This document shows positions 2,014 to 59,221 of a DNA stretch of 64,000 nt, piece after piece (within the stretch, counting starts at the first letter, position 1; each line of letters opens with the position of its first letter). The notes under the pieces are model-generated. The model worked only from the letters and a program-made list of their open reading frames with translations, was not told the origin of the DNA and did not search any database. This stretch comes from Gemmatimonadota bacterium. GTDB taxonomy: Bacteria > Gemmatimonadota > Gemmatimonadetes > Longimicrobiales > Gaopeijiaceae. The position numbers and the translations under genes are program-made. The stretch spans positions 1 through 64,000 of the forward strand of contig JBDHHQ010000012.1 of NCBI GenBank assembly GCA_039589315.1, written 5' to 3'.

Positions 2014-2514
2014 TTGAAGGAGATCGAGCGTCAGTTCCTCTGCCGACCCGTGGCGCCGGAGGCGCTGGGCGGAGCTCGCGAAGCGGTGCGCATCCGTCAG
2101 GGCTATCTGACGACCGACGATCCCGCGGTCCGCGTCCGACTGCGCAACGACGACTGGATTCTCGGTGTCAAAGCCGGACAGGGGTTGGTCCGTGAAGAGG
2201 TCGAGGTCTCCGTAGACGCCGAGGCGGGTCGCACCCTCATGGTCGTTGCGGGAGATCGGCGGCTGGAGAAGACCCGCTATCTCCTGGGACCCTGGGAGTT
2301 GGACGTCTTCAGCGGGAAGCTGGAAGGTCTCGTCCTGCTCGAGATCGAGCTCGACCGGGAAGACGCCCCGACCCCTCCGCTCCCGCCTGGCGTCGAGGTG
2401 ATCCAGGAGGTCACCGGCCGCTCGGGATACCGGAACCAGGCTCTGGCCGGACTGTCCCCCACCGAGGCTCGACGGTTTATCGACGAGCTCTATGGGCCCG
2501 GAACGCCGGGATGA
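2014..2514 (+). CDS. CYTH (triphosphate tunnel metalloenzyme) domain protein
   Basis: EIERQFL, IRQGYL, VRVR, EKTRY, WELDVF, EIEL motifs; TTG start. Confidence 0.85.
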   Translation: MKEIERQFLCRPVAPEALGGAREAVRIRQGYLTTDDPAVRVRLRNDDWILGVKAGQGLVREEVEVSVDAEAGRTLMVVAGDRRLEKTRYLLGPWELDVFSGKLEGLVLLEIELDREDAPTPPLPPGVEVIQEVTGRSGYRNQALAGLSPTEARRFIDELYGPGTPG

Positions 2515-5500
2515 CCGAGCAGCTCGGCTTCGACTTCGACACGCCGCCCACCGAGGCCGACCGGTCCGACGCGCCGGAACCGCGGGCGTCGCCCGCCAGA
2601 GGGGAGACGGACACGCCTCCGCCGGGCCCCTGTCGACTGGTCGAGAGCCTGGCTGCAGCAGCGCGGGCCCACCCTTGGGACCGGAAGCTCCTCCTGGCTC
2701 GGACGCGCGGCCAGGCTCGGGAGCTACTTCGTCAACTCGCGCTTCACGAGGGGGCCTGGCTCGGGTTCGAAGTGGGGACCGTGCTGCCTTTGGCCGTAGA
2801 GCTCGCCGGGCCGTCGTTGGCCGGCGAGGGCCGCGAGGTGCTGGACGAGTTCGACCGGCAGGCCCTTCTCGATGGAGCCATCGACCGCGTGCTGCTCGGA
2901 GCGGGTCGGGGCCCCCTCTCCGAGCTGGCGGAAGGCGTCGGCTTCCGGGCCGCGCTCAGCAGCTCGGTGCTCAGCCTGCGCATCGCCGGCGTGACGGCGG
3001 ACCGGGTCCAGGCCGCGCGGTTCGAGGACGGTGGCAAGCAGCGCGTCCTCGCGGCCATCGAGGCCCGCTACGAGGCGTTGCTCCAGGATGGTGGTGCTAC
3101 CGACGAGGCCGGCGTGTTGGCGCGGGCGGCCGAGCTGCTCGAGGGAGCGCCCCCGGACTCGATCGGGGAGCTGCTCGGCGGCCGAAGCGTGTTCCTCCTC
3201 CCCGGCCTCGGTCTTCGCGGGCTTCCCGGCCGCATCGTACGGGCCCTGATCGCAGGTGGCGCCGCGGTGCTGGAGACCGATCCGGTCCGCGGCCTCGAGC
3301 GTCCGCCGGCCTTCGTGTGGGCGGAAGGTCCGGTAGGCAGCCCCCTGTCCGACCTCCACGCCCCGGGGGAGCTGGCCGAGCCGGGTGCCGGGGGGGTCGA
3401 GGTGTTTTCTGCCGCCAGCATCGGCGACGAGTTGCGAGAGGTGCTGCGCCGGGCCGCGGACGCCGGGTTCTCCTGGGATCAAGTGGAGATCGTCGCCGCG
3501 GACGCCAGCGTGTACGGATCGGCGATGCACACCCTGTCTCGGCTCCTCGACGTTCCCGTGAGCTTCGCCGCAGGCTTGCCGGTTCAGCGAACTCGCCCGG
3601 GACGAGCGGTCACGGCGTTCTTCCGCTGGCTGGACAGCGGATTCCACGCCGAGGTCATCCGTTCGCTCCTGGAGGCCGGCGACCTCACGCCGCCTCGGCC
3701 CTGGGACCGGATCCTTCCCTCCCGGCTCGCCCGTCGCTTCCGGGATCTGCGGATCGGGTGGGGAAGGGCTCGCTACCTGGACCGGATCGACCAACGCCTC
3801 TCGTCCGTGGAGCAGATGTCCTGTGGTCGGCACGAGACGGAGGAAGGCCTGGAGAAGCGAAAGGAACGCACACGTCTCGAGCTCCGAGCGATCAAGGCGA
3901 TCGTGGAGCCGGTGCTGCGGAGGACGCCGACCGTTCCGGGCCGCCTCGACACCGCCCCGGAGAAGGTGTCTCCGGCTCAGCTGGCCCGCGGGCTCAGGGC
4001 CTTCCTGGACCGGGTGCCCGTGACGGATGCCGTCGATCGAACGGCCGCAGAGCGGCTCATGCGCCGTCTCGACCGCGTCCGGGAGACGCTGGATCGGCGA
4101 ACCGACTACCGGGCAGCGGCGGCGACCCTCCTGGGCCACCTGGACTTCCGGGTGCCGGCGCCACGGGCCGAGGGCCGGGCTCCGTGGAGCTCTGCCGGAG
4201 GCCACCTGTACCTGAGCGACTTCGAGCACGGTGGCTATTCGGGCCGCGCGGCCACCTTCCTGGTCGGCCTGGACGCGGGCCGCGTTCCGGGACAGGGGAA
4301 CCAGGACCCCTTGCTCCTGGACGCCGAGCGGTACGCGCTCGGCGATCAACTGCCGCGAAGCCGTGACCGGGTCGCCGAGCGCTCGTTCTCGCTGGCGGCC
4401 CTGCTGGCGCGCTTGCGTGGCCGAGTGTGCCTCAGCTACTGCGCGTGGGACCCGTCGGAGGCCCGGGCTGCACCCCCGTCCACCGAGATCCTCCAGGCCC
4501 ACCGCATCGCCAGCGGCCAGGCCTCCGCGGGCTTCAAGGCGCTGCACCGGCACCTGGGAACCGCGGTGGGCGTCGTTCCGCGGCGCCACCATCTCGACGC
4601 CCGGGACGTCTGGTTGTCGGCCCTCGCCTCCCACGGGCGCCTCCTGGCAGGTACGCCCACCGTCCGGGAGGCTTTCCCCCGGTTGGACGCCGGCTTGCGC
4701 GCGCGGGCCGCGCTTCCCGGACCCGTCGCAACACCCTTCCACGGCCGGGTCACGCCACGCCCCGATGCCCTGGACCCCCGGCGCAACCCCGAACGGGTGG
4801 TGTCCGCCAGCGCACTGGAGACGCTGGGCCGCTGTCCGCGCCGGTATCTCTACCGATACGTACTGGGCCTCCGGCCGCCGGATGACCCGGAGCTCGACCC
4901 GGATCGGTGGCTCGATCCACTGCAGAAGGGTGCGCTGCTCCACACGGTCTACGAGCGTACCCTGGCGGCGGCGCGCCGGGAGGGCGTGGGACCCGCGGAG
5001 CTGGCGCACGTAGCGCGACGCATCCTCTCCGAGGAGGCGAAGAAGGCCCTCGTGGAGGTGCCTGCGCCCAGCGAGGCCGTGCGCCTCAAGGAGCTCGACG
5101 ACCTGGAGCTGGACATCCGGGCCTTCGTCGAGGCCGTGACGCCCTGGCTCGACGATTGGGTGGCGCTCGAGCTCAAGTTCGGCCTCGCCGGAACCGACCC
5201 GGTGGCCCTCCCGGTGAAGGGTGGCACCATCAACGTCCGAGGCGCCATCGACCGCGTGGACCGGACTCCCGAGGGCCTGGTCGTGATCGACTACAAGACG
5301 GGCAGCACGGCGCGGTACTCGACGAAGAGCGGGACGTATGACGGGGGCAGGAGGCTGCAGCACCTGGTGTACACCCGTGTGGCTGCGCTCCTTCTCGCCG
5401 AGCCCGTGGCCCGCATGGAGTACAGCTTCCCGACGCACGCCAATCTCGGGGAGAGCCTCGCGTATCCTCCCGACCGCCTGCGGACGGGGGAGCGCCTCGT

Positions 5501-34762: not shown

Positions 34763-36016
34763 CTACCCCCCCGCGGCCATGGAATCCAGGAACTCCTGGT
34801 TCGTCTCCGTCCGCTTCATTCTATCCAGCAGGAACGTGACGGCTTCCGTGGGAGGCATGTCGGCCAGGAAGTTCCGGAGCAGGTAGACCCGGTTCAGCTC
34901 GACGTCCGACAGGAGCAGCTCTTCCTTGCGCGTGCCCGACCGGTTCAGCTCGATGGCCGGGAAGATCCGCTTGTCGGCGATGTGGCGATCCAGGACCAGC
35001 TCCATGTTTCCGGTGCCCTTGAACTCCTCGAAGATCACCTCGTCCATCCGGCTGCCCGTCTCGATGAGAGCGGTGGCGATGATGGTCAGCGATCCGCCTT
35101 CGTCGATGTTCCGCGCGGCACCGAAGAAACGCTTCGGCTTGTGCAGCGCGTTGGCGTCCACGCCACCCGAGAGGATCTTCCCGGAGTGCGGTACCGTAAC
35201 GTTGTAGGCCCGAGCCAACCGGGTGATGGAGTCCAGCAGAATCACGACGTCCTTCCCGTGCTCCACGAGCCGCTTGGCCTTCTCGAGCACCATCTCGGCC
35301 ACCTGCGTGTGCCGGTCTGCGGGCTCGTCGAAGGTCGAGCTGATCACCTCGGCATCGACGTGCTCCTCCATGTCCGTCACCTCTTCGGGGCGCTCGTCGA
35401 TGAGGAGCACGATGAGGTGGCAGTCTGGATGGTTGGCCGTGATGGAGTTGGCCACATCCTGGAGGAGCATGGTCTTCCCCGCCTTGGGCGGAGAGACGAT
35501 GAGCCCGCGCTGGCCCATCCCGATCGGCGCGATCAGGTCGACGACCCGCATGGACAACGTGCCGTCTTCCCGCTCCAGGCGAATGCGGTTCTCCGGGTAA
35601 CGCGGGCGCAGGTTGTCGAAGGCGATCCGGTGTTTGGCGTTTTCAGGGTCGTCGCCATTGACGGTCTCGACCTTGAGCAGGGCGAGGTACCGCTCGCCTT
35701 CCTTCGGAGGACGGACCTGCCCCAGCACCGTATCGCCCGTCCGCAGGTCGAACCGTTTGATCTGGGACGGACTCACGTAGATGTCGTCAGGGCCGTAGAG
35801 ATAGTTCCAGTCCTGGGAGCGGAGAAAACCGTATCCTTCTGGTAGGATCTCGAGGACACCCTCTCCCCGAAGCACCACGTCGGTGTCGAGTAGGTTCTGT
35901 TCGATGCGGAAGATGAGGTCCTGCTTACGCAGACCCGAGTAGTTGGAGATGTTCAGCTCTTCGGCAAGGTCGTGGAGCTCTCCCACGCTCTTGCTCTTCA
36001 GTTCCGCGATGTCCAC
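34763..36016 (-). CDS. rho: Transcription termination factor Rho
   Basis: [56 protein letters not shown] start at VDIAELK. Confidence 0.97.
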
Positions 36017-50509: not shown

Positions 50510-51262
50510 ATGGGATCGAGATCAGGCCCAGCGATGCTCGCGCTTCTGGGAGTGATCGCCCTCCCGTTGGGTGCACAGGAGACCTCCTACCTGTTGGGCC
50601 GCGTTATCGATGCCGGTACGAAGGCGCCGCTGAACGGCGCCTTCGTGTCCTTTCCCGACACCCGCCGCGGCGTCTTCACCGACCCCGACGGGGTTTTCCG
50701 TCTACCTGGGGCCGTGCCCAACGACGCCCGGAAGGTCCAGATCGAGCTCATCGGATACGGAATCGCCGAGTTGCCGGCACGCCTGTTGTCCGATTCGGTG
50801 CCTCTCAACATCCCGTTGGCGTCGGACCCGATCCTCGTGGAGGGCTTCCAGGTGGTGAGCGACCGGTTCCGCCGCCGTCGCAACGCTTCCACCATGGCCG
50901 TGCGGACCTTCGACGTTCGCTGGTTGCGTACGTCGCCGGCCACGAACGTCCTGGAGTTTCTCGAGCGCCAGACCTTCATCCGCGAGGTGCCCTGCTCGGT
51001 CGGCCTGGGTGCGTCCGCATCGCTCCTGAGCGGTCCGGGAAACTGCGCACGGGTGCGGGGGAGAGTTCAGCCTGTGACGCTGTGCATCGACGAGGTGCCA
51101 TCGTTGGGTGGGCTCTTCCAGCTCGCCTCGATCCCGCCCCAGGAGCTCAACATGGTCGAGGTGTACGGTGGGGGACGCATGGTCCGCGTCTACACCCAGG
51201 CGTTCATGGAGCAGGTGTCCCGGAGGCGCTTCAGGCCCCACCCCATCGAGTACGGTTGCTGA
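50510..51262 (+). CDS. Exported protein with carboxypeptidase-regulatory-like domain and plug-like C-terminus
   Basis: GRVIDAGT..PL.GA.V, TDPDGVF, IGY; IDE...IPPQEL..VEVY. Confidence 0.65.
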   Translation: MGSRSGPAMLALLGVIALPLGAQETSYLLGRVIDAGTKAPLNGAFVSFPDTRRGVFTDPDGVFRLPGAVPNDARKVQIELIGYGIAELPARLLSDSVPLNIPLASDPILVEGFQVVSDRFRRRRNASTMAVRTFDVRWLRTSPATNVLEFLERQTFIREVPCSVGLGASASLLSGPGNCARVRGRVQPVTLCIDEVPSLGGLFQLASIPPQELNMVEVYGGGRMVRVYTQAFMEQVSRRRFRPHPIEYGC

Positions 51263-51272
51263 CCGGGCGGTT

Positions 51273-52160
51273 GTGACCGGGGAGCGGCTGCCCCCGCCTC
51301 CGGTGCTCGACGAGCTCGGCGCCCACGTGTCCGCGGCTGGGGGAGTGGCCAAGGCGCCGGGGCGTGCGCGCGACCGTGACTCGGTGTGTCTACAGCTCTT
51401 TACCAAGCAACCCAGCCGCTGGGCGGAACCGCACCTGGATGACGAGCAGGTTCGTGCCTTCCGGGACGAGCGGACTGGCCGGGGAATCCTCGTGGCCGGC
51501 GCCCACGACTCCTATCTGATCAACCTGTCGTCACCCGACCCGGCGCTCCGTGCGCGCTCGTACGCCTCTTTCCGCGAGGAGCTGGTCCGTTGCCAGGCCC
51601 TGGAGCTGGACTTTCTGGTCACCCACCCGGGCAACGCCACGGACGGAGACATCCGCAGCGGCCTGGACCGTAACGCCGAGGCGTTGGGGCGTGCTCTGGA
51701 AGAAGTCCCCGGCTCCACGCGCGTGCTCCTGGAGCTCACGGCCGGGGCTGGCTCGTCGGTGGGAGGCACCTTCGAGAACCTGGCCCGAATCGTGGCTGCC
51801 GTGCCACTGCGTCTGCAGGGTCGGACCGGGATCTGCTTCGATACCTGCCACGCCTACGCCGCGGGGTACGATTTGGTCCGAGATTACGAGGGAGTCTGGC
51901 GGGAGTTCGACGCCGTGATCGGGTTGGATCGCCTGGAGCTCTTCCATCTCAACGACGGCAAGGGGGGGCTCGGCTCTCGCCTGGACCGCCACGAGCACAT
52001 CGGCCGCGGATCGCTGGGCGAGGAACCCTTCCGCCGGCTCATGAACGACGATCGGATGGCCCGGATCCCGAAGCTCCTGGAGACGCCCAAGGAAGACGAC
52101 CCGGTGGCCCTCGATCGGGAGAACCTCCGCGTGCTGCGGTCCTTCCGCGGCCGAGCTTAG
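51273..52160 (+). CDS. nfo: Endonuclease IV
   Basis: GAHVS, HDSYLINL, HPG, CFDTCH, HLND, DRHEHIG, LETPK. Confidence 0.93.
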   Translation: MTGERLPPPPVLDELGAHVSAAGGVAKAPGRARDRDSVCLQLFTKQPSRWAEPHLDDEQVRAFRDERTGRGILVAGAHDSYLINLSSPDPALRARSYASFREELVRCQALELDFLVTHPGNATDGDIRSGLDRNAEALGRALEEVPGSTRVLLELTAGAGSSVGGTFENLARIVAAVPLRLQGRTGICFDTCHAYAAGYDLVRDYEGVWREFDAVIGLDRLELFHLNDGKGGLGSRLDRHEHIGRGSLGEEPFRRLMNDDRMARIPKLLETPKEDDPVALDRENLRVLRSFRGRA

Positions 52161-52196: not shown

Positions 52197-53084
52197 TCAC
52201 TCGGCCAGCGCACCCGCGCGGCGATCCTGGTCCGCACTCCTGGTGAAGGCCGGGACCCTCAGGCCCCGGTGCTCCTCGGCCATGACCCGTACGCCATACC
52301 GGGGCCACAATGCCAGGGCCGCCAGCAGCACCGCTCCGAACATCAGTACGAGCACCGGGCCGGTAGGAATGTCCAGACTGAAGGATACGCCCAACCCGAC
52401 CACGATGGCCGCGGTGCCGCAAGCCCAGGCGATCAGCAGCGCTTTCCGGAAGCTCGTCGTGAAGAGGAAGGCGACCACGGCCGGCATCACCAGGACGCTG
52501 AAGACCATGAGCACGCCGGCGATGTTGACCGAAGCCGTGATGATGAAGCCGAACGTGGCGTAGAACACGAAGTCCCAGAACCGGACGCTTCGCACCTGCT
52601 CGGGGGCGAAGGTAATCGACAGGAGTGGTCGTCTGAGGACGTAGTGGAGCAACCCGATCACCGCCGACGATACGGCGACGTAGGCGATCGTGCTCCACCT
52701 CACCCAGATCAGCGTGCCCGTCATCGTTTCCCGCAGGTGCTCGGCCCCCTCGGCGCTCAGCCCCGCCAGGAGGATAACCGCAGCGGACGCCAGGACGTAC
52801 GTGATGCCGATGAGCGCCTCCTGTGGCACCGGGGATTCTTCGAGGCGCGAGAAGCTGAAGATGAGTGCCCCGATCAGGGTGAAGCCGAATGACGCGACGT
52901 AGTGCATCGCGGATCCGTGCGGGACGCCCACGGCCAGGGCTGCCGTTCCTCCCAGGGCGGCGATCTGAGCCAGCGCCAGGTCCACGAAGATGACGCCCCG
53001 CTGAATGATGTGCAGCCCGAAGTACGCATGGGTGAGCAGGATCACCATCGCCACCACGAAGGGTGCGAGAAGAAGATCGATCAT
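52197..53084 (-). CDS. Metal (Zn/Mn) ABC transporter permease, ABC-3 family
   Basis: GLHIIQRGVIFVDLALAQ, QEALIG, GVLMVFSVLVMPA, DIPTGP. Confidence 0.88.
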   Translation of the reverse strand: MIDLLLAPFVVAMVILLTHAYFGLHIIQRGVIFVDLALAQIAALGGTAALAVGVPHGSAMHYVASFGFTLIGALIFSFSRLEESPVPQEALIGITYVLASAAVILLAGLSAEGAEHLRETMTGTLIWVRWSTIAYVAVSSAVIGLLHYVLRRPLLSITFAPEQVRSVRFWDFVFYATFGFIITASVNIAGVLMVFSVLVMPAVVAFLFTTSFRKALLIAWACGTAAIVVGLGVSFSLDIPTGPVLVLMFGAVLLAALALWPRYGVRVMAEEHRGLRVPAFTRSADQDRRAGALAE

Positions 53085-53129: not shown

Positions 53130-54368
53130 TCACCCTCCGGCTTCGAAAGCCTCTGCAAGCCGACTCACCCACAGGTCCATCAGCTCGAAGTAGTCGGCCG
53201 GCTCGCCGTCCTCGACGGGGTAGAGCGGAAGGATCACGGCCGCCGCGCCCCCGCGATCGGCGACCGTCCGCACCTTGCTCCGGTCGAAATAGTTCGCGGC
53301 CAGTATCACGTCGTAGCCACGCTGCTGCATCAGCTCGATCAGCTCGGCCACGTGACGCGGCGTGGGCGGAATGCCCGGCTTGGCCTCGACGTAGTCGACG
53401 CAGCTGACCTGGAAGCGGTCTTCGAAATAGGCCCAGTTCTTGTGATAGCAGATCAGGCTCTGGCCCCGGAAGGGTGCCGCGCGGCCGAGCCAGCCCCCGA
53501 GACGGTCGATGAGAGGCGCGCCCTCGTGCACGTTGTCCTCGAGAAACGAGAACAGGTTCCCGGACCGGGCCAGGCGATCCAGAGTCTCGCCACCGAACAG
53601 GTCCATGAGCGCGTCGCCGAAGAGGGCACTGCGCACGCGCTCGATGAAGTCGGCCAGTCCCTCGTCCCAGAGATCCGCCCGCTCGGGCGCCACCCTCTTG
53701 AGTCCCACCGTCACGTTCCGGGCGATCTGCACGACGCGGAGCGGATCGGTATGGAGGTGGGGGTTCCCGTACAGGTGGACGTCACCGGCGCTCCGGTCGG
53801 CGCCCGGCGGAATGTCGAGAAGCGCGACGCCGGTGTAGGCCGTCACGTATCCTGCGCCGCCCTCGGTGACTCTGCCGTTGCCCGCCTTGTCCAGCAGAGT
53901 CGGGACCCAGAGCTCCAGGTCCAGCCCCGTCGTGATGAACAGATCGGCGTCCCGGAGGTCCCTGGCGAAGCTGGGCTTGGGACGCACGAAATGGGCATCC
54001 TCGCTGGGGTGGGCGATGGAGGTCACGTGGACCTCGGCGCCACCGATCTGGCGCACGATGTCCGCGTACACGGGGAGGGACGCCACCACCCGAACGGGGG
54101 CCTGCTGCGGGGAGCCGCCGGCCGGGGTCGTGATGCCACCCGGCTCCTCGGCCTCCGGCTGGGCGCCCGCGACGCTGGCCGAGGGCACGGCGTGGCGTGC
54201 CTGCTCGACCCCCCGCTCGGCGTCGTCGACGCCGGCGGCTCCCTCGTCACCCGCCAGGGGCGTGGCGGCCATCGCCCAGAGGGCCGCGACCATGACCAGA
54301 CCGGCGGGTCGGGCCAGAGGGGTCATGCCCCCATCTCTCCGCATGCGTCGTTCGTCTTCGGCTTTCAT
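53130..54368 (-). CDS. Metal ABC transporter substrate-binding protein (cluster A-I)
   Basis: EDAHFV, GLDLE, GNPHLHTDP, YHKNW, KPGIPPTPRH; ATG overlaps the upstream TGA. Confidence 0.9.
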   Translation of the reverse strand: MKAEDERRMRRDGGMTPLARPAGLVMVAALWAMAATPLAGDEGAAGVDDAERGVEQARHAVPSASVAGAQPEAEEPGGITTPAGGSPQQAPVRVVASLPVYADIVRQIGGAEVHVTSIAHPSEDAHFVRPKPSFARDLRDADLFITTGLDLELWVPTLLDKAGNGRVTEGGAGYVTAYTGVALLDIPPGADRSAGDVHLYGNPHLHTDPLRVVQIARNVTVGLKRVAPERADLWDEGLADFIERVRSALFGDALMDLFGGETLDRLARSGNLFSFLEDNVHEGAPLIDRLGGWLGRAAPFRGQSLICYHKNWAYFEDRFQVSCVDYVEAKPGIPPTPRHVAELIELMQQRGYDVILAANYFDRSKVRTVADRGGAAAVILPLYPVEDGEPADYFELMDLWVSRLAEAFEAGG

Positions 54369-55753
54369 CAGTAGGTCTCGTGCTTGTGGGGACCCATGGC
54401 GAACGTGAACTGGATCAGCAACAAGTTGCGCACCCCCGCCGGGTCCTCCAGATGGTCGAACTCGGCCCTCAGTCGAACCCATTCGCTCTGCCACCACGTC
54501 AGGGTCGGCGCCACCAGCCAGGCGCTCTCGTCGGGGTCGTCGGGCTCCTGGACCCACTCGTATCTGCCCCCTACGAGCCACTGCCTGCCCAGTCGGTACT
54601 CACCCCATACCCAGGTGCCCCACGCGGTCTCCAGCCCCTCGAGCCCTGATGGGTCTCGCACCATCGCGCCACCGCGAAGGTTGAACCCCCGGTAGAGCGA
54701 CCGCCCCGGCGGGGTCCAGGTAAGGGAACCCTCCAGGGTGTAGAGTCTCTGGTCGAAGGCGATGGGATCGAGCGGCTCCGTCGGTGGCTCCTCTCCCTCC
54801 TCCTCGGGGTCCAGGCGAAACGGCCCGCCGGTGGCGCTCACACCCATGTCGAGATCCCATGCCTGGCCGAGCTGCCAGAAGGCGTTGAGGTGGCCCAGGA
54901 AGGAGGGCTTGTTCGACTCGCCGTAGAGGAGCGCGTTGCTGCTTCGGGTCACCTCGAAGGCCGCTTCATACGTGCCCGCGCCCCGGATCGGGAGCAGCAC
55001 CCGGGCACTGGCTCCGGCCTGGCTGAGGTTTTCCTCTCCGATGAACGCCAGATGGGGAAGAGAGCGGCTCTGGAAGGGCAGCGCGTGGGAGTGCCAGCGG
55101 TTCATGGTCCCGAGCTGCTGGAAGAACTGTCCCAGCTTGAGGGAGAAGCCGCCCGGGAGCGCCACCCACTCCAGATAGGCCTCCTCGAGCTCGAAGCCCG
55201 CTTCCTCGCCCCCCTCGCCGTGTCCGTGTCCCTCCTCTCCCTCGAACGGGATCAGCTCACCGCCCGGCGTGTGATACGCGAGGAAGATCTTGGCGCGGGA
55301 GTAGGGGTCCAGTGACGATTGGAAGGAGAACTCGAATTCTCTCGGGACGAAGTTGTTCTCGTCGGGGTCGTCCGGGTTGCTGAATGCGAAGAAGTCGGCG
55401 TTGACGCTGATCTCCGGGTTGAGCGCCTGCAGCGACCGCTGTCGGCCCACGAACTGCCCCTCCTGAGCCTGCGGGTCTTCGGGAGGGGCGTCCGCCGCGG
55501 CCTCCTCGGCGGCCTCGAGGAGCGCTTCCAGCTCGTCACGCTGCTCTTCCTCGGCTCGCGCATCCTCCAGCCTACGCAGGGCGGCGCGGAGACTGTCGAT
55601 CTCCGCCCGCAGAGAGTCGACCTCTTCACGGATCGAATCTCCTACCTCCTGAGCCCCCACGGCAGACGCCGCTCCCGCCATCGTGGTGGCGATGGCGAGC
55701 GCGGTGATCGGCAGCGAAAGCCGCCTCAGAAGTCGGGATGTCGTATACATCAT
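54368..55753 (-). CDS. His-rich outer-membrane beta-barrel (zinc-regulated receptor/porin type)
   Basis: Signal peptide, coiled coil, NPEISV, EGHGHG, RWHSH, SEWVRLR, C-terminal GPHKHETY. Confidence 0.75.
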   Translation of the reverse strand: MMYTTSRLLRRLSLPITALAIATTMAGAASAVGAQEVGDSIREEVDSLRAEIDSLRAALRRLEDARAEEEQRDELEALLEAAEEAAADAPPEDPQAQEGQFVGRQRSLQALNPEISVNADFFAFSNPDDPDENNFVPREFEFSFQSSLDPYSRAKIFLAYHTPGGELIPFEGEEGHGHGEGGEEAGFELEEAYLEWVALPGGFSLKLGQFFQQLGTMNRWHSHALPFQSRSLPHLAFIGEENLSQAGASARVLLPIRGAGTYEAAFEVTRSSNALLYGESNKPSFLGHLNAFWQLGQAWDLDMGVSATGGPFRLDPEEEGEEPPTEPLDPIAFDQRLYTLEGSLTWTPPGRSLYRGFNLRGGAMVRDPSGLEGLETAWGTWVWGEYRLGRQWLVGGRYEWVQEPDDPDESAWLVAPTLTWWQSEWVRLRAEFDHLEDPAGVRNLLLIQFTFAMGPHKHETY

Positions 55754-55831
55754 GAGCCTGATTGCCTGAAACTGACACGCGAGGTGGCTAGCGGCCACAC
55801 GGCGACTCGCCCCGGAGCGAGGGGCACCGAT

Positions 55832-56161
55832 TCAGGCGGCGGGGGGCGCTCTGGGCGGAGGGCGGATGTGCTCGATCTTCGAAAGTGGGACACCGGTGCG
55901 GAAGCCATCACGGTCGTCGCGTACTTCGAGAGATGCCGACTGCGGGCTCTCGGCCCCCAGCACCGCCGTAATGGACTGGATCTGGGAGCAGACGCGGTGG
56001 TCGTGGGCGCCCGGGCAGTCGGCAGGGTCGTGCTGGGGCTCCAGCGTCGTCCGCGCCTGCGCGTCCTGGTCGAGGAGCGTGGGCGCGACCCCCCCGCCCA
56101 TCGCGAGCAGCAAGGCCAGCGACGTCAGCATCGTCCTGGACGGGCGGGTTGACGTGTCCAT
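55832..56161 (-). CDS. His/Cys-rich leader protein with C-terminal RAPP motif (DUF2946/CruR-like)
   Basis: Hydrophobic N-terminal segment, HDPADCPGAHDHRVC, ends PPPRAPPAA*, 78 nt upstream of the metal operon. Confidence 0.7.
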   Translation of the reverse strand: MDTSTRPSRTMLTSLALLLAMGGGVAPTLLDQDAQARTTLEPQHDPADCPGAHDHRVCSQIQSITAVLGAESPQSASLEVRDDRDGFRTGVPLSKIEHIRPPPRAPPAA

Positions 56162-56396
56162 GGTGTCTCAAAACCGTACGCTGGCGTCCGGCCCGAGTCA
56201 ACGACCGCCCTCGGACAAGGACGCTCGCCAGCCAGCACGGGGAACGCTAGCTTGCCGGCCTTCTTGTACAAGCGCGACCCGCTCAGTGGTCCCGATGCGC
56301 GAAACAACATGCATGGAAAGGGTGGCTTTGGGCGCGACTTTCGGCGTCCGCGGACCACGACTCCCCTCGAGGCGCGGGCCCGCTCGCTCGGCCCTC

Positions 56397-57032
56397 GTGT
56401 ACCGGGTCGTCCAGCCTCTGCTGATCATCATGCTGGGCTGGTCGGCACAGCCCGCCACGGCCCAGGAGGCGCCTATCCTGTTCGACGTTCGCCTGGGTGC
56501 CCTCTATGCGAGTCCATTCGCTGAGGGGCAGACCCTTCATCCGGACGACGTGGGCACGGACGGCCGTGAGTCCGTCGACATCCAACCCGGAATCGGTCCC
56601 GCTGCGGATGCCGCGATCCTCCTGGGCTTCTCGCCCCGGGTGGACGGCGAGCTCCGTCTGGGTCTGTCCTGGAACGGCCTGACGGGGTCCGGAACCTCCG
56701 GCACCTGGGACGGGGGTGGCATCACGACGGTGTCAGTGTTGGCCGGGCTGGGAGCCAAGCTCTGGCCAGGCGTGGTGCTGAGAGGCGCACTGGGCAAGCT
56801 CTTCCACTCGTCGGGTGCCGCCGTCCTGGACGGCGGCAGCAACACGGGTCTGCTCTTCAGCGGCGGCGTCGGGTACCGACCGGCATTGGATCTGTCCTTC
56901 GGCTTGCGGCTGGACGCCGATGTCCAGTACTACGAGTTCGGATCGTCAGCGCTGCGCGAATCCGGCGCGGCCGACGCCTCGGTGTACCGGGTCTCGCTGA
57001 TGCTGGCAGCCATCTTCGGAGGAGACTCGTGA
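56397..57032 (+). CDS. Putative outer-membrane beta-barrel protein
   Basis: Signal peptide ending ATA-Q, alternating beta-strand pattern; start uncertain (56313 or 56397). Confidence 0.55.
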   Translation: MYRVVQPLLIIMLGWSAQPATAQEAPILFDVRLGALYASPFAEGQTLHPDDVGTDGRESVDIQPGIGPAADAAILLGFSPRVDGELRLGLSWNGLTGSGTSGTWDGGGITTVSVLAGLGAKLWPGVVLRGALGKLFHSSGAAVLDGGSNTGLLFSGGVGYRPALDLSFGLRLDADVQYYEFGSSALRESGAADASVYRVSLMLAAIFGGDS

Positions 57033-57763
57033 GCGGGGATGCACGAGGTCGCGGCGTGCGGCGGCCCGGACGGGGAACGGTGGCCCCTATCCTGTCTGCT
57101 CTGGTCCTCTTGTCGCTGGGGTTGTCGGCCGGGTGCGAGACCCCCTCGGTGCCCTTTGACGAGGGTCAGTACGACTTCCGCCTCAACGTGACCACGTCGG
57201 CAGGGAGCTTCGTCCGCACGTTCCACTGGGGGCCCGGCGCCGAAGTGCCCGTCTTCGTGAACCTGTCATCGACGGAGGGTCGGCCGTCTCTGGCGACCGC
57301 GCTGGACCGCGCCAGCGACACGTGGACCCGGTCCGCCGTGTTCAGCGAGGTGCGTGTCAGGCGGACCACGGACCTCGGCGAAGCGGTAGCGGTCCTGCAG
57401 TGGGCGGATGCGGAGCCCGTGCTCTCCACCCCGCCGGGCTGTACGGGACCGGTGACCGGGGCCGCCTCCACGGTGGGCTGCTTGAACGAGACGGCCGACT
57501 CGCTTCGCACCTGGCGGCGTCGCGACGGAGGGTCCTCCAAGGTGCTGTTCAGCGTGTTCGTCAAGGTACGGCCCGATTTCGACGACGAGCTGCTCGACCG
57601 CGTCGTCGCGCACGAGGCGGGTCACGTGCTCGGGATCCTGGCCCACTCCCTGAACGGCGAGGATCTCATGTGGGCCGGTGACCTCGCTTCCGCCAGCCCT
57701 TCCGGGGCCGACCGCCAAGCGTTGCGGAGCCTGTACCAGAGCCCCGTCGACCTCCTCTACTAG
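57029..57763 (+). CDS. Matrixin-like zinc metalloprotease lipoprotein
   Basis: SAGC lipobox, HEAGHVLGILAHS, DLM Met-turn, ADRQALRSLY. Confidence 0.85.
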   Translation: MSGDARGRGVRRPGRGTVAPILSALVLLSLGLSAGCETPSVPFDEGQYDFRLNVTTSAGSFVRTFHWGPGAEVPVFVNLSSTEGRPSLATALDRASDTWTRSAVFSEVRVRRTTDLGEAVAVLQWADAEPVLSTPPGCTGPVTGAASTVGCLNETADSLRTWRRRDGGSSKVLFSVFVKVRPDFDDELLDRVVAHEAGHVLGILAHSLNGEDLMWAGDLASASPSGADRQALRSLYQSPVDLLY

Positions 57764-58055: not shown

Positions 58056-58092
58056 GAGGCCGGCGTCTCGGGGGCGTCGGCCTCCTTTGTTT
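58056..58092 (+). terminator. Intrinsic terminator
   Basis: GAGGCCGGCGTC / GGCGTCGGCCTC stem followed by CTTTGTTT. Confidence 0.7.
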
Positions 58093-58146
58093 GTCCGCGA
58101 TCCGGGACCGAAACGCCCGAAACCGGGTAGCCGTTGGCTCCGACTC

Positions 58147-58800
58147 ATGACTGGACGCGGAGCACTGGCGTTGACCGACCTCGAGACCTCCACCCCACCT
58201 GCGGACACCCCTTCCCTGGGCGCCGACCTGACGCACGCCAGCTTCGAGGAGCTGGTGGCCGAGATGATCCGACGCATCGGCGACGACCCGGATCGGGAGG
58301 GACTCCAGAAGACGCCCGAGCGGGTGGCCAAGGCGTGGGAGCACATGGCTCGCGGATACACGAGCAGCGCCGAGCAAGTGATCGGAGACGCTCTCTTCGA
58401 GGAACACCATCACAATATGGTCCTCGTGAAGGACATCGAGCTGTACTCGATGTGTGAGCATCACCTGCTTCCCTTCTTCGGGAAGGCGCATGTGGCGTAT
58501 ATCCCCAACGGTCAGATCATGGGCCTGAGCAAGACGGCCCGTCTTGTCGAGGTCTACGCACGGCGCCTGCAAGTCCAGGAGCGGCTCACGGAGCAGATCG
58601 CTCAGGCTCTTTGGGAGATCGTCCAGCCCCAGGGCGTGGGTGTCGTGATCGAAGCGGCGCATCTGTGCATGATGATGCGCGGCGTGGAAAAGCAGAGCTC
58701 GAAAACGATCACTTCGGCGATGCGCGGTCTGTTCCTCAAGGACCACCGGACGAGGGGGGAGTTCCTCCGCCTGGCCACCAGCACGCAGCAGCCCCTCTGA
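58147..58800 (+). CDS. folE: GTP cyclohydrolase I
   Basis: [41 protein letters not shown]; start 58147 or 58171. Confidence 0.95.
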
Positions 58801-58813
58801 GTCTTCCGACGCG

Positions 58814-59221
58814 ATGTACACGGTAAGCGTACAGGCCCACTACGACGCGGCCCACTTCCTGGCCAACTACGACGGGAAGTGCAACCGACTCCACGGTCAC
58901 CGGTACGTCGTCGAGGCGGCCGTCCAGACGCCCGATCTGGACGCGTCCGGCATCGCCTTCGATTTTGCCGATCTGAAGGGCCTGCTGCGGGAGCTCGCCG
59001 ACGAGCTCGACCACCAGAACCTCAACGATCTGCCTCAGTTCCGGAACGTGGAGACCAGTGCCGAGAACCAAGCGAAGTACTTCTTCGACGCCCTGCGGGC
59101 GCGGCTTCCGGATCACGTGGCCGGCGGATTGATCTACACGCGGGTCTGGGAGGGGCCCAATCAGTGGGCCCAATTCAGCGAAGGGCCCTGGATGGCGCCC
59201 CCTGGGCCGCCGGGTACCTGA
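58814..59221 (+). CDS. queD: 6-carboxytetrahydropterin synthase (PTPS family)
   Basis: AAHFL, CNRLHGHRY, DF, LDHQNLN, TSAEN, VWE. Confidence 0.88.
   Translation: MYTVSVQAHYDAAHFLANYDGKCNRLHGHRYVVEAAVQTPDLDASGIAFDFADLKGLLRELADELDHQNLNDLPQFRNVETSAENQAKYFFDALRARLPDHVAGGLIYTRVWEGPNQWAQFSEGPWMAPPGPPGT

Follow-up and report, generated by a model that had tools for sequence, protein, structure and literature searches.

The window analysed here is a stretch of 64,000 nucleotides from a Gemmatimonadota contig. On its minus strand, a 109-amino-acid open reading frame (55832-56161, read from the sequence) stands ahead of porin, binding protein and permease genes. The features discussed are as follows:

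56173..56201, minus strand: sigma70-like promoter candidate, TTGACT-17 nt-TACGGT, read from the sequence
55832..56161, minus strand: leader ORF (109 aa), a candidate CruR/CutF-like arrest-peptide uORF of the HxHxxC type
56072..56131, minus strand: hydrophobic N-terminal segment by hydropathy (about residues 11-30), putative signal peptide or signal anchor
55988..56032, minus strand: putative metal-ligand cluster H44, C49, H53, D54, H55, C58, from the alignment
55841..55852, minus strand: RAPP arrest motif (AGA GCG CCC CCC), residues 104-107, two codons before the stop
55833..55837, minus strand: candidate anti-Shine-Dalgarno (anti-SD) sequence GCCUG (last Ala codon and stop) by folding, which would lie under a RAPP-stalled ribosome
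55754..55831, minus strand: spacer of 78 nt, folding into two hairpins, whose initiation region is weak and holds two CAGGC (sequence and folds)
54368..55753, minus strand: outer-membrane porin, a predicted 16-strand barrel without plug by its model, homologue of Vibrio omr
53130..54368, minus strand: ZnuA-family (cluster A-I) substrate-binding protein (SBP), PF01297, E 2.9e-41
52197..53084, minus strand: ZnuB-like permease of the ABC-3 type, PF00950, E 2e-24, closing the operon
35642-35863, minus strand: Rho RNA-binding domain gene, within the window

The original prediction described a 109-aa ORF with a hydrophobic N-terminus, a His/Cys cluster and RAPP with its Arg on an AGA codon, and all of these are present. 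The ligand residues H44, C49, H53, H55 and C58 lie in HDPADCPGAHDHRVC and form the pattern H-x4-C-x3-HDH-x2-C; the ORF ends with R104-A-P-P107 followed by Ala-Ala-TGA. Top 15-residue hydropathy at the N-terminus is 1.86, and the structure model places a helix at residues 7-34 and another, with low confidence, from H55, but is mostly unstructured (pTM 0.29) with no confident fold. No Pfam or NCBIfam match was found for the ORF, and its ESM Atlas neighbours at 0.97 bear the automatic label 'putative DUF2946'. The spacer runs 78 nt from the leader to the first barrel ATG at 55753. It folds into hairpins at 55809-55825 and 55784-55798 and offers AGG as its sole SD-like bases, confirming the length, the two small hairpins and the lack of a strong RBS that had been predicted.

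The -10 hexamer of the promoter candidate ends 11 nt 5' of the leader ATG, a position from which an almost leaderless mRNA is predicted. A promoter scan of the locus found none, the TTGACT/TACGGT candidate scoring under its threshold. Across the family, a TAnnnT ending 3-14 nt 5' of the leader ATG was seen at 36/60 loci versus 0/60 in a control window. A riboswitch or other known RNA was rejected, since Rfam returned nothing to E 1 within 55600-56400 and the candidate promoter leaves almost no 5' leader; an intrinsic terminator was also sought in the spacer, and none was found.

Conservation of the leader was assessed upstream of orthologous barrels, using the best 80 of 124 confirmed loci from a barrel search, nearly all titled Gemmatimonadota. 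Together with the window these gave 81 sequences, and the 73 with at least 800 nt upstream entered the leader count. We observed R[AGS]PP at most 7 codons from a stop on the coding strand at 63 of the 73 loci (62/72 other than the window, mostly Gemmatimonadota), versus 4/73 on the reverse strand, 2/54 one kb further up and 0/71 downstream. In an alignment of 64 leaders, conservation reaches 90% or more at both H53 and C58. Thus, the conservation of RAPP and of the His/Cys ligands that the original prediction implied is seen upstream of orthologous operons. R, P and P are invariant in the same alignment, whose leaders were selected on that motif, and mean column identity is 25% while the Cys-to-Arg distance is constant to within one residue. 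The hydrophobic N-terminus is kept in full-length leaders. In 65 leaders the motif reads RAPP (51), RGPP (8) or RSPP (6) and lies 1-7 residues from the stop by the search rule, 61 of them at 2-4. Every synonymous codon of Arg (six) and of Pro (four) occurs in the motifs, indicating that selection acts on the peptide.

In the window's own genome (6.67 Mb, 288 contigs), R[AGS]PP occurs within 7 codons of a stop at 1,032 sites over six frames. Only in the window leader is the motif accompanied by a hydrophobic segment and by a Cys placed 43-50 residues before it, a filter chosen after the family had been seen. A chance ORF was rejected on this uniqueness and on the recurrence of the motif before orthologous barrels far above controls. 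From its sequence and conservation, the ORF is very probably a functional arrest leader. It is very improbable that it is instead a small secreted metal-binding accessory protein acting in trans, with a non-regulatory RAPP. An export signal, metal ligands and the place of first gene in a transport operon would suit such a protein, but a fixed Cys-to-Arg distance at 25% column identity, the mostly unstructured model, RNA covariation at the stall site (described below) and the counter-selection of RAPP in ordinary proteins (PMC12992588) argue against it.

At ten of the 73 loci the search saw no such motif. Six of these form one clade that lost the leader; it is nested among HxHxxC carriers and has TATACT 8 nt 5' of the barrel start, and no Zur-like palindrome was found ahead of its six barrels. 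In this clade (L003-L007 and L017, and L002) the cassette may be constitutive or otherwise controlled. As for the others, L035 comes second of two barrels in a tandem operon that starts with a leader, L071 shares its genome with another, leader-headed copy, L077 has an assembly gap, and L074 is without explanation. A leader also precedes 18 of 28 orthologues in Acidobacteriota, and relaxing the motif to HSPP or RPPP adds four; this set holds 30 loci, drawn from 73 matching genomes out of 201, a tally in which two unpublished genomes are counted. In a sister barrel subfamily the leader is present at 54/69 loci (reverse-strand control, 7/69), and in a third set at 31/33 Gemmatimonadota and 22/23 mostly acidobacterial loci, bearing in mind that the sets may share genomes and that loci are related. 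A profile built on the 64 leaders matched 1,488 clusters (E 0.001). R[AGS]PP ends every one of the best 150, of which 113 are HxHxxC, a circular result because the profile selects for this.

Some variants of the arrangement were also seen. The cassette leaders at L111, L113, L114, L115 and L283 end in HSPP, RPPP or HAPP in place of RAPP, and a tandem cassette (L119:9700-17263, G004) has one leader and then barrel-SBP-permease twice. The Myxococcota sister-subfamily barrels L212 and L214-L219 have no R[AGS]PP leader within 1 kb, and an ABC ATPase is encoded upstream of the barrel at L212.

RAPP and RGPP are reported to arrest ribosomes in many N-terminal contexts, and RSPP partly so (PMC12992588); these are the three motifs that were searched, and all three are present among the leaders. 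In CruR (Bp2923) of Bordetella pertussis, whose arrest has been toeprinted (PMC12992588), CxxC occupies residues 90-93 and RAPP starts at 139. This spacing is conserved, a five-residue insertion weakens copper control, and CruR works without its export signal (PMC9426467). Like CruR, the window leader is the first gene of a metal-uptake operon, with a putative export signal, RAPP near the stop, a long spacer and a poorly structured product. Its ligands precede R104 by 60 (H44), 55 (C49), 51 (H53), 50 (D54), 49 (H55) and 46 (C58) residues. C90 and C93 of CruR lie at -49 and -46 from R139, and H55 and C58 stand at the same positions, the window leader having HRVC where CxxC would be expected. 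This agrees with the earlier proposal of a His-rich ligand set in place of CxxC. The C58-to-R104 gap is 45 residues, within the CruR-type 45 +/-2, and is shared by 35/38 HxHxxC leaders, i.e. those with Cys at -46, a position also held by Cys in 28/31 HxHxxC leaders of the third set.

Unlike CruR, the window leader has HxxC plus H44, C49 and H53 instead of CxxC, and the next gene encodes a plug-less porin with an SBP and a permease rather than a TonB receptor. The cassette is of the ZnuA/ZnuB type, not a copper-homeostasis operon, zinc and not copper is predicted as the metal, the phylum is different, and a covarying anti-SD suggests initiation control besides or instead of Rho. The PF11162 (DUF2946) HMM gave no match to E 1 with the window ORF; 9 of the 64 orthologous leaders match weakly (best E 0.012). 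Membership of DUF2946 by HMM was rejected on the window result. Though outside DUF2946 by HMM, the leader is likely to work like CruR and CutF.

The ORF also resembles the CutF-like rule set, i.e. fewer than 150 aa, PP in the last 15 residues and a co-oriented neighbour within 1,000 nt (PMC9973294), with its 109 aa, PP at 106-107 and 78-nt spacer. In CutF of Rhodobacter capsulatus, stalling is described as unmasking the SD of the next gene (PMC9973294; bioRxiv 10.1101/2025.02.05.636593). CutF's own traits are CxxxC plus PPP, induction of the stall by copper, a detoxifying oxidase as target, and a dependence on EF-P and the signal sequence. Because the target at the window locus is an importer, metal should relieve this stall, opposite to CutF. 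ApdA, ApdP and SecM are Sec/YidC monitors ahead of sec genes and are not known to have a metal cluster at a fixed distance. What they share with the window leader is a localisation signal at the N-terminus and, close to the C-terminus, a RAPP-like core (PMC12992588).

Ligand types differ among the cassette leaders. Apart from HxHxxC, they carry Hx[DE]xxC or CxxC, the distal Cys of the latter falling mostly at -44 or -45; CxxC is present in 17/18 acidobacterial and 48/54 sister-subfamily leaders. A FastTree tree of 118 barrels did not settle the order of these types, and no direction of change is claimed. Cys at -55 occurs together with Cys at -46 in 85/93 leader-profile matches, as would suit a leader that monitors export or a periplasmic disulfide (C49-C58) in the style of SecM or CutF, with metal indirect or irrelevant. 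The retained hydrophobic N-terminus also fits that proposal, as does the CutF model, which invokes disulfides and needs the signal sequence (bioRxiv 10.1101/2025.02.05.636593). Nevertheless, conservation of the His (-51, -49) and the Asp (-50) matches that of Cys, several leaders hold a single Cys, and the genes downstream serve metal import and not sec or dsb functions, so that export or disulfide monitoring is improbable.

The cassette downstream bears on which metal the leader would sense. The mature part of the porin was modelled with a mean pLDDT of 89 as 16 strands with a long N-terminal helix, its nearest folds are OprB, OmpT and OprP, and its conserved His motifs are NRWHxH and GPHKHETY. 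A TonB-dependent receptor (22 strands plus plug) was rejected because the model has 16 strands, lacks a plug and is closest to porin folds. Database labels gave the barrel no name, nearly all reading 'hypothetical', and no plasmid match was found. The likely ATG of the SBP overlaps the barrel stop by one base. The PF01297 and PF00950 matches are both over cut-off, and the PF00950 permease is the sole one in the genome, in line with the porin-SBP-permease operon that had been proposed. The three ligand His of the SBP are invariant in 98/98 full-length orthologues (114 found), and the same alignment has no conserved acidic fourth ligand. Three-His SBP sites indicate zinc, and acidic ligands are typical of Mn/Fe binding proteins.

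Profiles of the three families score three consecutive Vibrio campbellii genes at 105, 175 and 112 bits and three consecutive Sulfurovum genes at 71, 211 and 105 bits. The omr-znuA2-znuB2 cluster occurs in V. parahaemolyticus, V. vulnificus and V. campbellii and belongs to the Zur regulon; in V. parahaemolyticus (VP_RS21430-21420), zinc deficiency induces its genes 1034-, 543- and 283-fold (PMC9817125). From gene order and species, we infer that the scored V. campbellii locus is this cluster; the link is one of homology at family level rather than tree-based orthology. The window cassette resembles it in its three gene families, their order and the lack of an ATPase. The Vibrio barrel is named 'TonB-dependent', which ill fits the plug-less 16-strand window model. 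The control regions differ, the Vibrio cassette being Zur-controlled at the DNA level, with a TGTTAT-GCT-ATAACA palindrome (6-3-6) and no RAPP leader in V. campbellii, whereas the window cassette is headed by a leader. At the Sulfurovum locus, a His/CxxC leader ends in HAPP with CxxC about 70 residues from the motif, a longer spacing. A Zur-like palindrome was found ahead of 0/61 leaders at two substitutions, in a weak test with a gammaproteobacterial pattern, Zur boxes differing between phyla. Two Fur-family genes are present in the genome, so added transcriptional control is possible.

Since all three genes match a zinc-starvation-induced Vibrio cassette, we hold with good confidence that zinc is the likeliest signal metal. 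Zinc or a similar metal had been predicted, and zinc itself is best supported, by the three-His SBP and by this homology. Mixed His/Cys sites, though, are not zinc-specific, and an arrest gated by copper, cobalt, nickel or manganese, with the cassette importing that metal, has to be weighed. Both tested relatives (CruR and CutF) sense copper, the same cassette is preceded by CxxC leaders in the sister subfamily and in Acidobacteriota, and most leaders of types other than the window's carry CxxC, CruR's copper motif, which counts against zinc. His-only CutF-like leaders are also described before Ni/Co HupE/UreJ genes (PMC9973294). Against these points stand the induction of the homologous Vibrio cassette by zinc starvation, an SBP without the acidic ligands of Mn/Fe proteins, and the named neighbours, so that a metal other than zinc is quite unlikely. 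Of 69 recurrent neighbour clusters, 38 were scanned and 22 named, with no copper gene among the 22; a ZIP transporter neighbours 13 loci, all in one clade, and alkaline phosphatase 11 loci. At L060, a ZIP-family gene (2459-3289, minus strand) lies beside the leader and divergent from it.

An ABC permease is shared with canonical ZnuABC, as is the SBP, but the cognate ATPase and an intact coupling helix are absent here. The operon contains no ATPase, and nothing in the genome (95% complete) scores above the ZnuC or AztA cut-offs. In 54 loci of the first set with at least 600 nt past the permease, the ATPase profile matches two, weakly (89 and 48 bits), versus a median of 420 bits in the sister set. 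In the third set, 52/53 loci have no ATPase, while the sister subfamily encodes one at 58/60 loci and keeps both ATPase and coupling helix. The genome's best ATPase match stands between two genes that, judged by eye, resemble a FecCD/BtuC-type permease and SBP, and an ATPase may be shared with another system. A second ZnuA-family SBP in the genome (G000:C11:82176-82973, L123) has no ABC-3 permease; it follows a gene for an unrelated membrane protein and a match resembling an ABC ATPase.

The coupling helix corresponds to residues 154-162 of E. coli ZnuB (PMC12236471), and the window permease lacks four residues in this region (about 52581-52610) relative to PsaC (7KYP). An A-x3-G motif is lost in 17/18 and 28/28 ATPase-less permeases of the short type, the window's clade, and kept in 35/42 of the long type and in 10/10 acidobacterial ATPase-less permeases; in Vibrio and Sulfurovum permeases the region is about 15-16 residues shorter. 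As judged from these alignments, erosion of the coupling helix is graded across the family and not universal. An [FY]D-x-A-x-G coupling test (1/60 vs 65/66) was rejected because it overstated the loss, E. coli ZnuB itself lacking FD. A bolder reading is that a zinc arrest peptide replaces Zur as the sole control of an ATP-independent, ATPase-less importer made of the porin, the three-His SBP and a permease derived from ZnuB whose coupling helix is eroded; we regard both the control and the importer so conceived as doubtful. If true, HxHxxC, Hx[DE]xxC and CxxC on one scaffold would be a natural series tuning the stall-releasing metal.

Pairing between stall-site RNA and the porin start was assessed by matching 27 nt from the Arg codon with each locus's own downstream initiation region at 64 loci, with six start codons set by hand and the rest by a signal-peptide and SD rule. 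Cognate duplexes average -14.26 kcal/mol, compared with -12.39 +/- 0.31 for swapped ones (0/10,000 permutations, values that overstate because the loci are related), and an upstream control segment of the same 64 loci shows no covariation. Only offsets 0-12 from the Arg codon give the signal (z -4.5, -5.6 and -3.2; no more than 2.3 in size elsewhere). It persists when the loci are thinned to 44 and when the hand-set starts are left out, and it is replicated in 53 sister loci (z -4.8). Thus, stall-site RNA covaries with the initiation region of the next gene family-wide, and at the window locus the pairing depends on the folding window. There, GCCUG can pair with CAGGC at 55764-55768 or 55756-55760, with a probability of 0.85 when folded from the Arg codon and then 0.015, 0.018 and 0.000 with growing context, the first drop coming with 15 nt more; in the sibling L001 (70% identical) the helix probability ranges from 0.98 to 0.37.

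Simulated stalls gave mixed results. In short folds, accessibility rises from 0.36 to 0.46 under the stall (control, 0.37), and in synonymous recoding 20/64 loci fall in the best tenth, the window not among them. At the window locus, a simulated stall gives no clear opening of the start region. In long-window folds, accessibility gains in 26/64 loci and the stall does not differ significantly from the upstream control footprint (p 0.13), and long-window folding was rejected as proof of a switch on that ground. Taken from the sequence comparisons, initiation-site exposure is probably the main output.

At 64/64 loci, C exceeds G (0.44 vs 0.27) in the stretch that begins 60 nt ahead of RAPP and ends 20 nt past the stop. 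This composition, the Rho gene at 35642-35863, the CruR precedent with identical spacing and the weak anti-SD case at the window locus would all fit a zinc-released arrest whose main output is Rho-dependent termination, the stalled ribosome hiding a C-rich rut site. However, the C-richness derives partly from Pro, Ala and Arg codons, while the cognate covariation is specific to the stall footprint and replicated. Both outputs can coexist, and Rho as the main one is unlikely, if less so than the alternatives above. A second Rho-domain match lies on contig C32.

We lean modestly towards a conserved RAPP leader that stalls at low zinc, with the operon on, and is released by zinc, with the operon off. 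This model builds on the observed anatomy, ligand spacing, conservation, operon order, homology and covariation. When zinc is scarce, the ribosome would arrest at RAPP with the two Pro codons in its P and A sites, as inferred from the RAPP/RGPP experiments and the CruR toeprint. Given distances of 46-60 residues from the arrest point, H44-C58 would then lie just beyond the exit tunnel, in a place where folding driven by metal could exert a pull on the chain. The stalled ribosome would cover RAPP-to-stop RNA that otherwise pairs with the porin initiation region, a step suggested by the family-wide covariation, and the importer would be made. Zinc binding to H44-C58 would fold the cluster and release the stall, and RNA pairing, Rho or both would shut the operon; zinc as the metal and CruR-like relief of arrest are drawn from cassette homology and importer logic. 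Sensing during export, as put forward in the original prediction, is not supported; sensing could take place in the cytoplasm or the periplasm, because the CruR signal is dispensable (the cytoplasmic proposal) and the CutF signal is needed. The promoter-like site, the anti-SD covariation and the lack of an ATPase were not part of the original prediction.

The claim that this combination is undescribed stands in part. At least nine rows in the source table of PMC12992588 hold RAPP leaders before same-named barrels, undiscussed in that paper, and His-only CutF-like leaders are in print; the HxHxxC variant was not found. By eye, eight of the nine rows are CxxC and none HxHxxC, their link to the window barrel is the shared name only, and the word 'zinc' is absent from the main text of PMC12992588. 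Row MBA2685147.1 of the same table is a sister-subfamily-like CxxC/RAPP leader before a TolC gene; this scaffold is thus found ahead of likely exporters too, and there the sign of control would be the opposite. Searches of open-licence PMC/bioRxiv literature found no zinc-sensing arrest peptide, no HxHxxC ligand variant and no ATPase-independent ZnuB function. The CruR paper states that no riboswitch is known for copper or zinc (PMC9426467). Metal-gated ribosome arrest has so far been shown for copper only (CruR, CutF), and a zinc version, if true, would bring a second metal and a new type of operon under translational metal sensing. Control of the same three-gene cassette by Zur in Vibrio and by a leader in Gemmatimonadota and Acidobacteriota would be a regulatory swap, and a Cys-to-His change at fixed stall distance bears on the way in which a RAPP stall is released by metal binding. 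The permease without an ATPase poses a question of its own.

The cassette is flanked by genes (51108-52160, 57029-57763, 58087-59221) that we take to encode zinc enzymes, namely endonuclease IV, a matrixin-like peptidase, FolE and QueD. Two plus-strand ORFs are divergent from the leader, a small barrel-like one without a family match (56295-57032) and a lipoprotein-like metallopeptidase (57029-57763). Endonuclease IV is a recurrent neighbour at 21 loci and FolE/QueD at 15, which probably reflects shared synteny.
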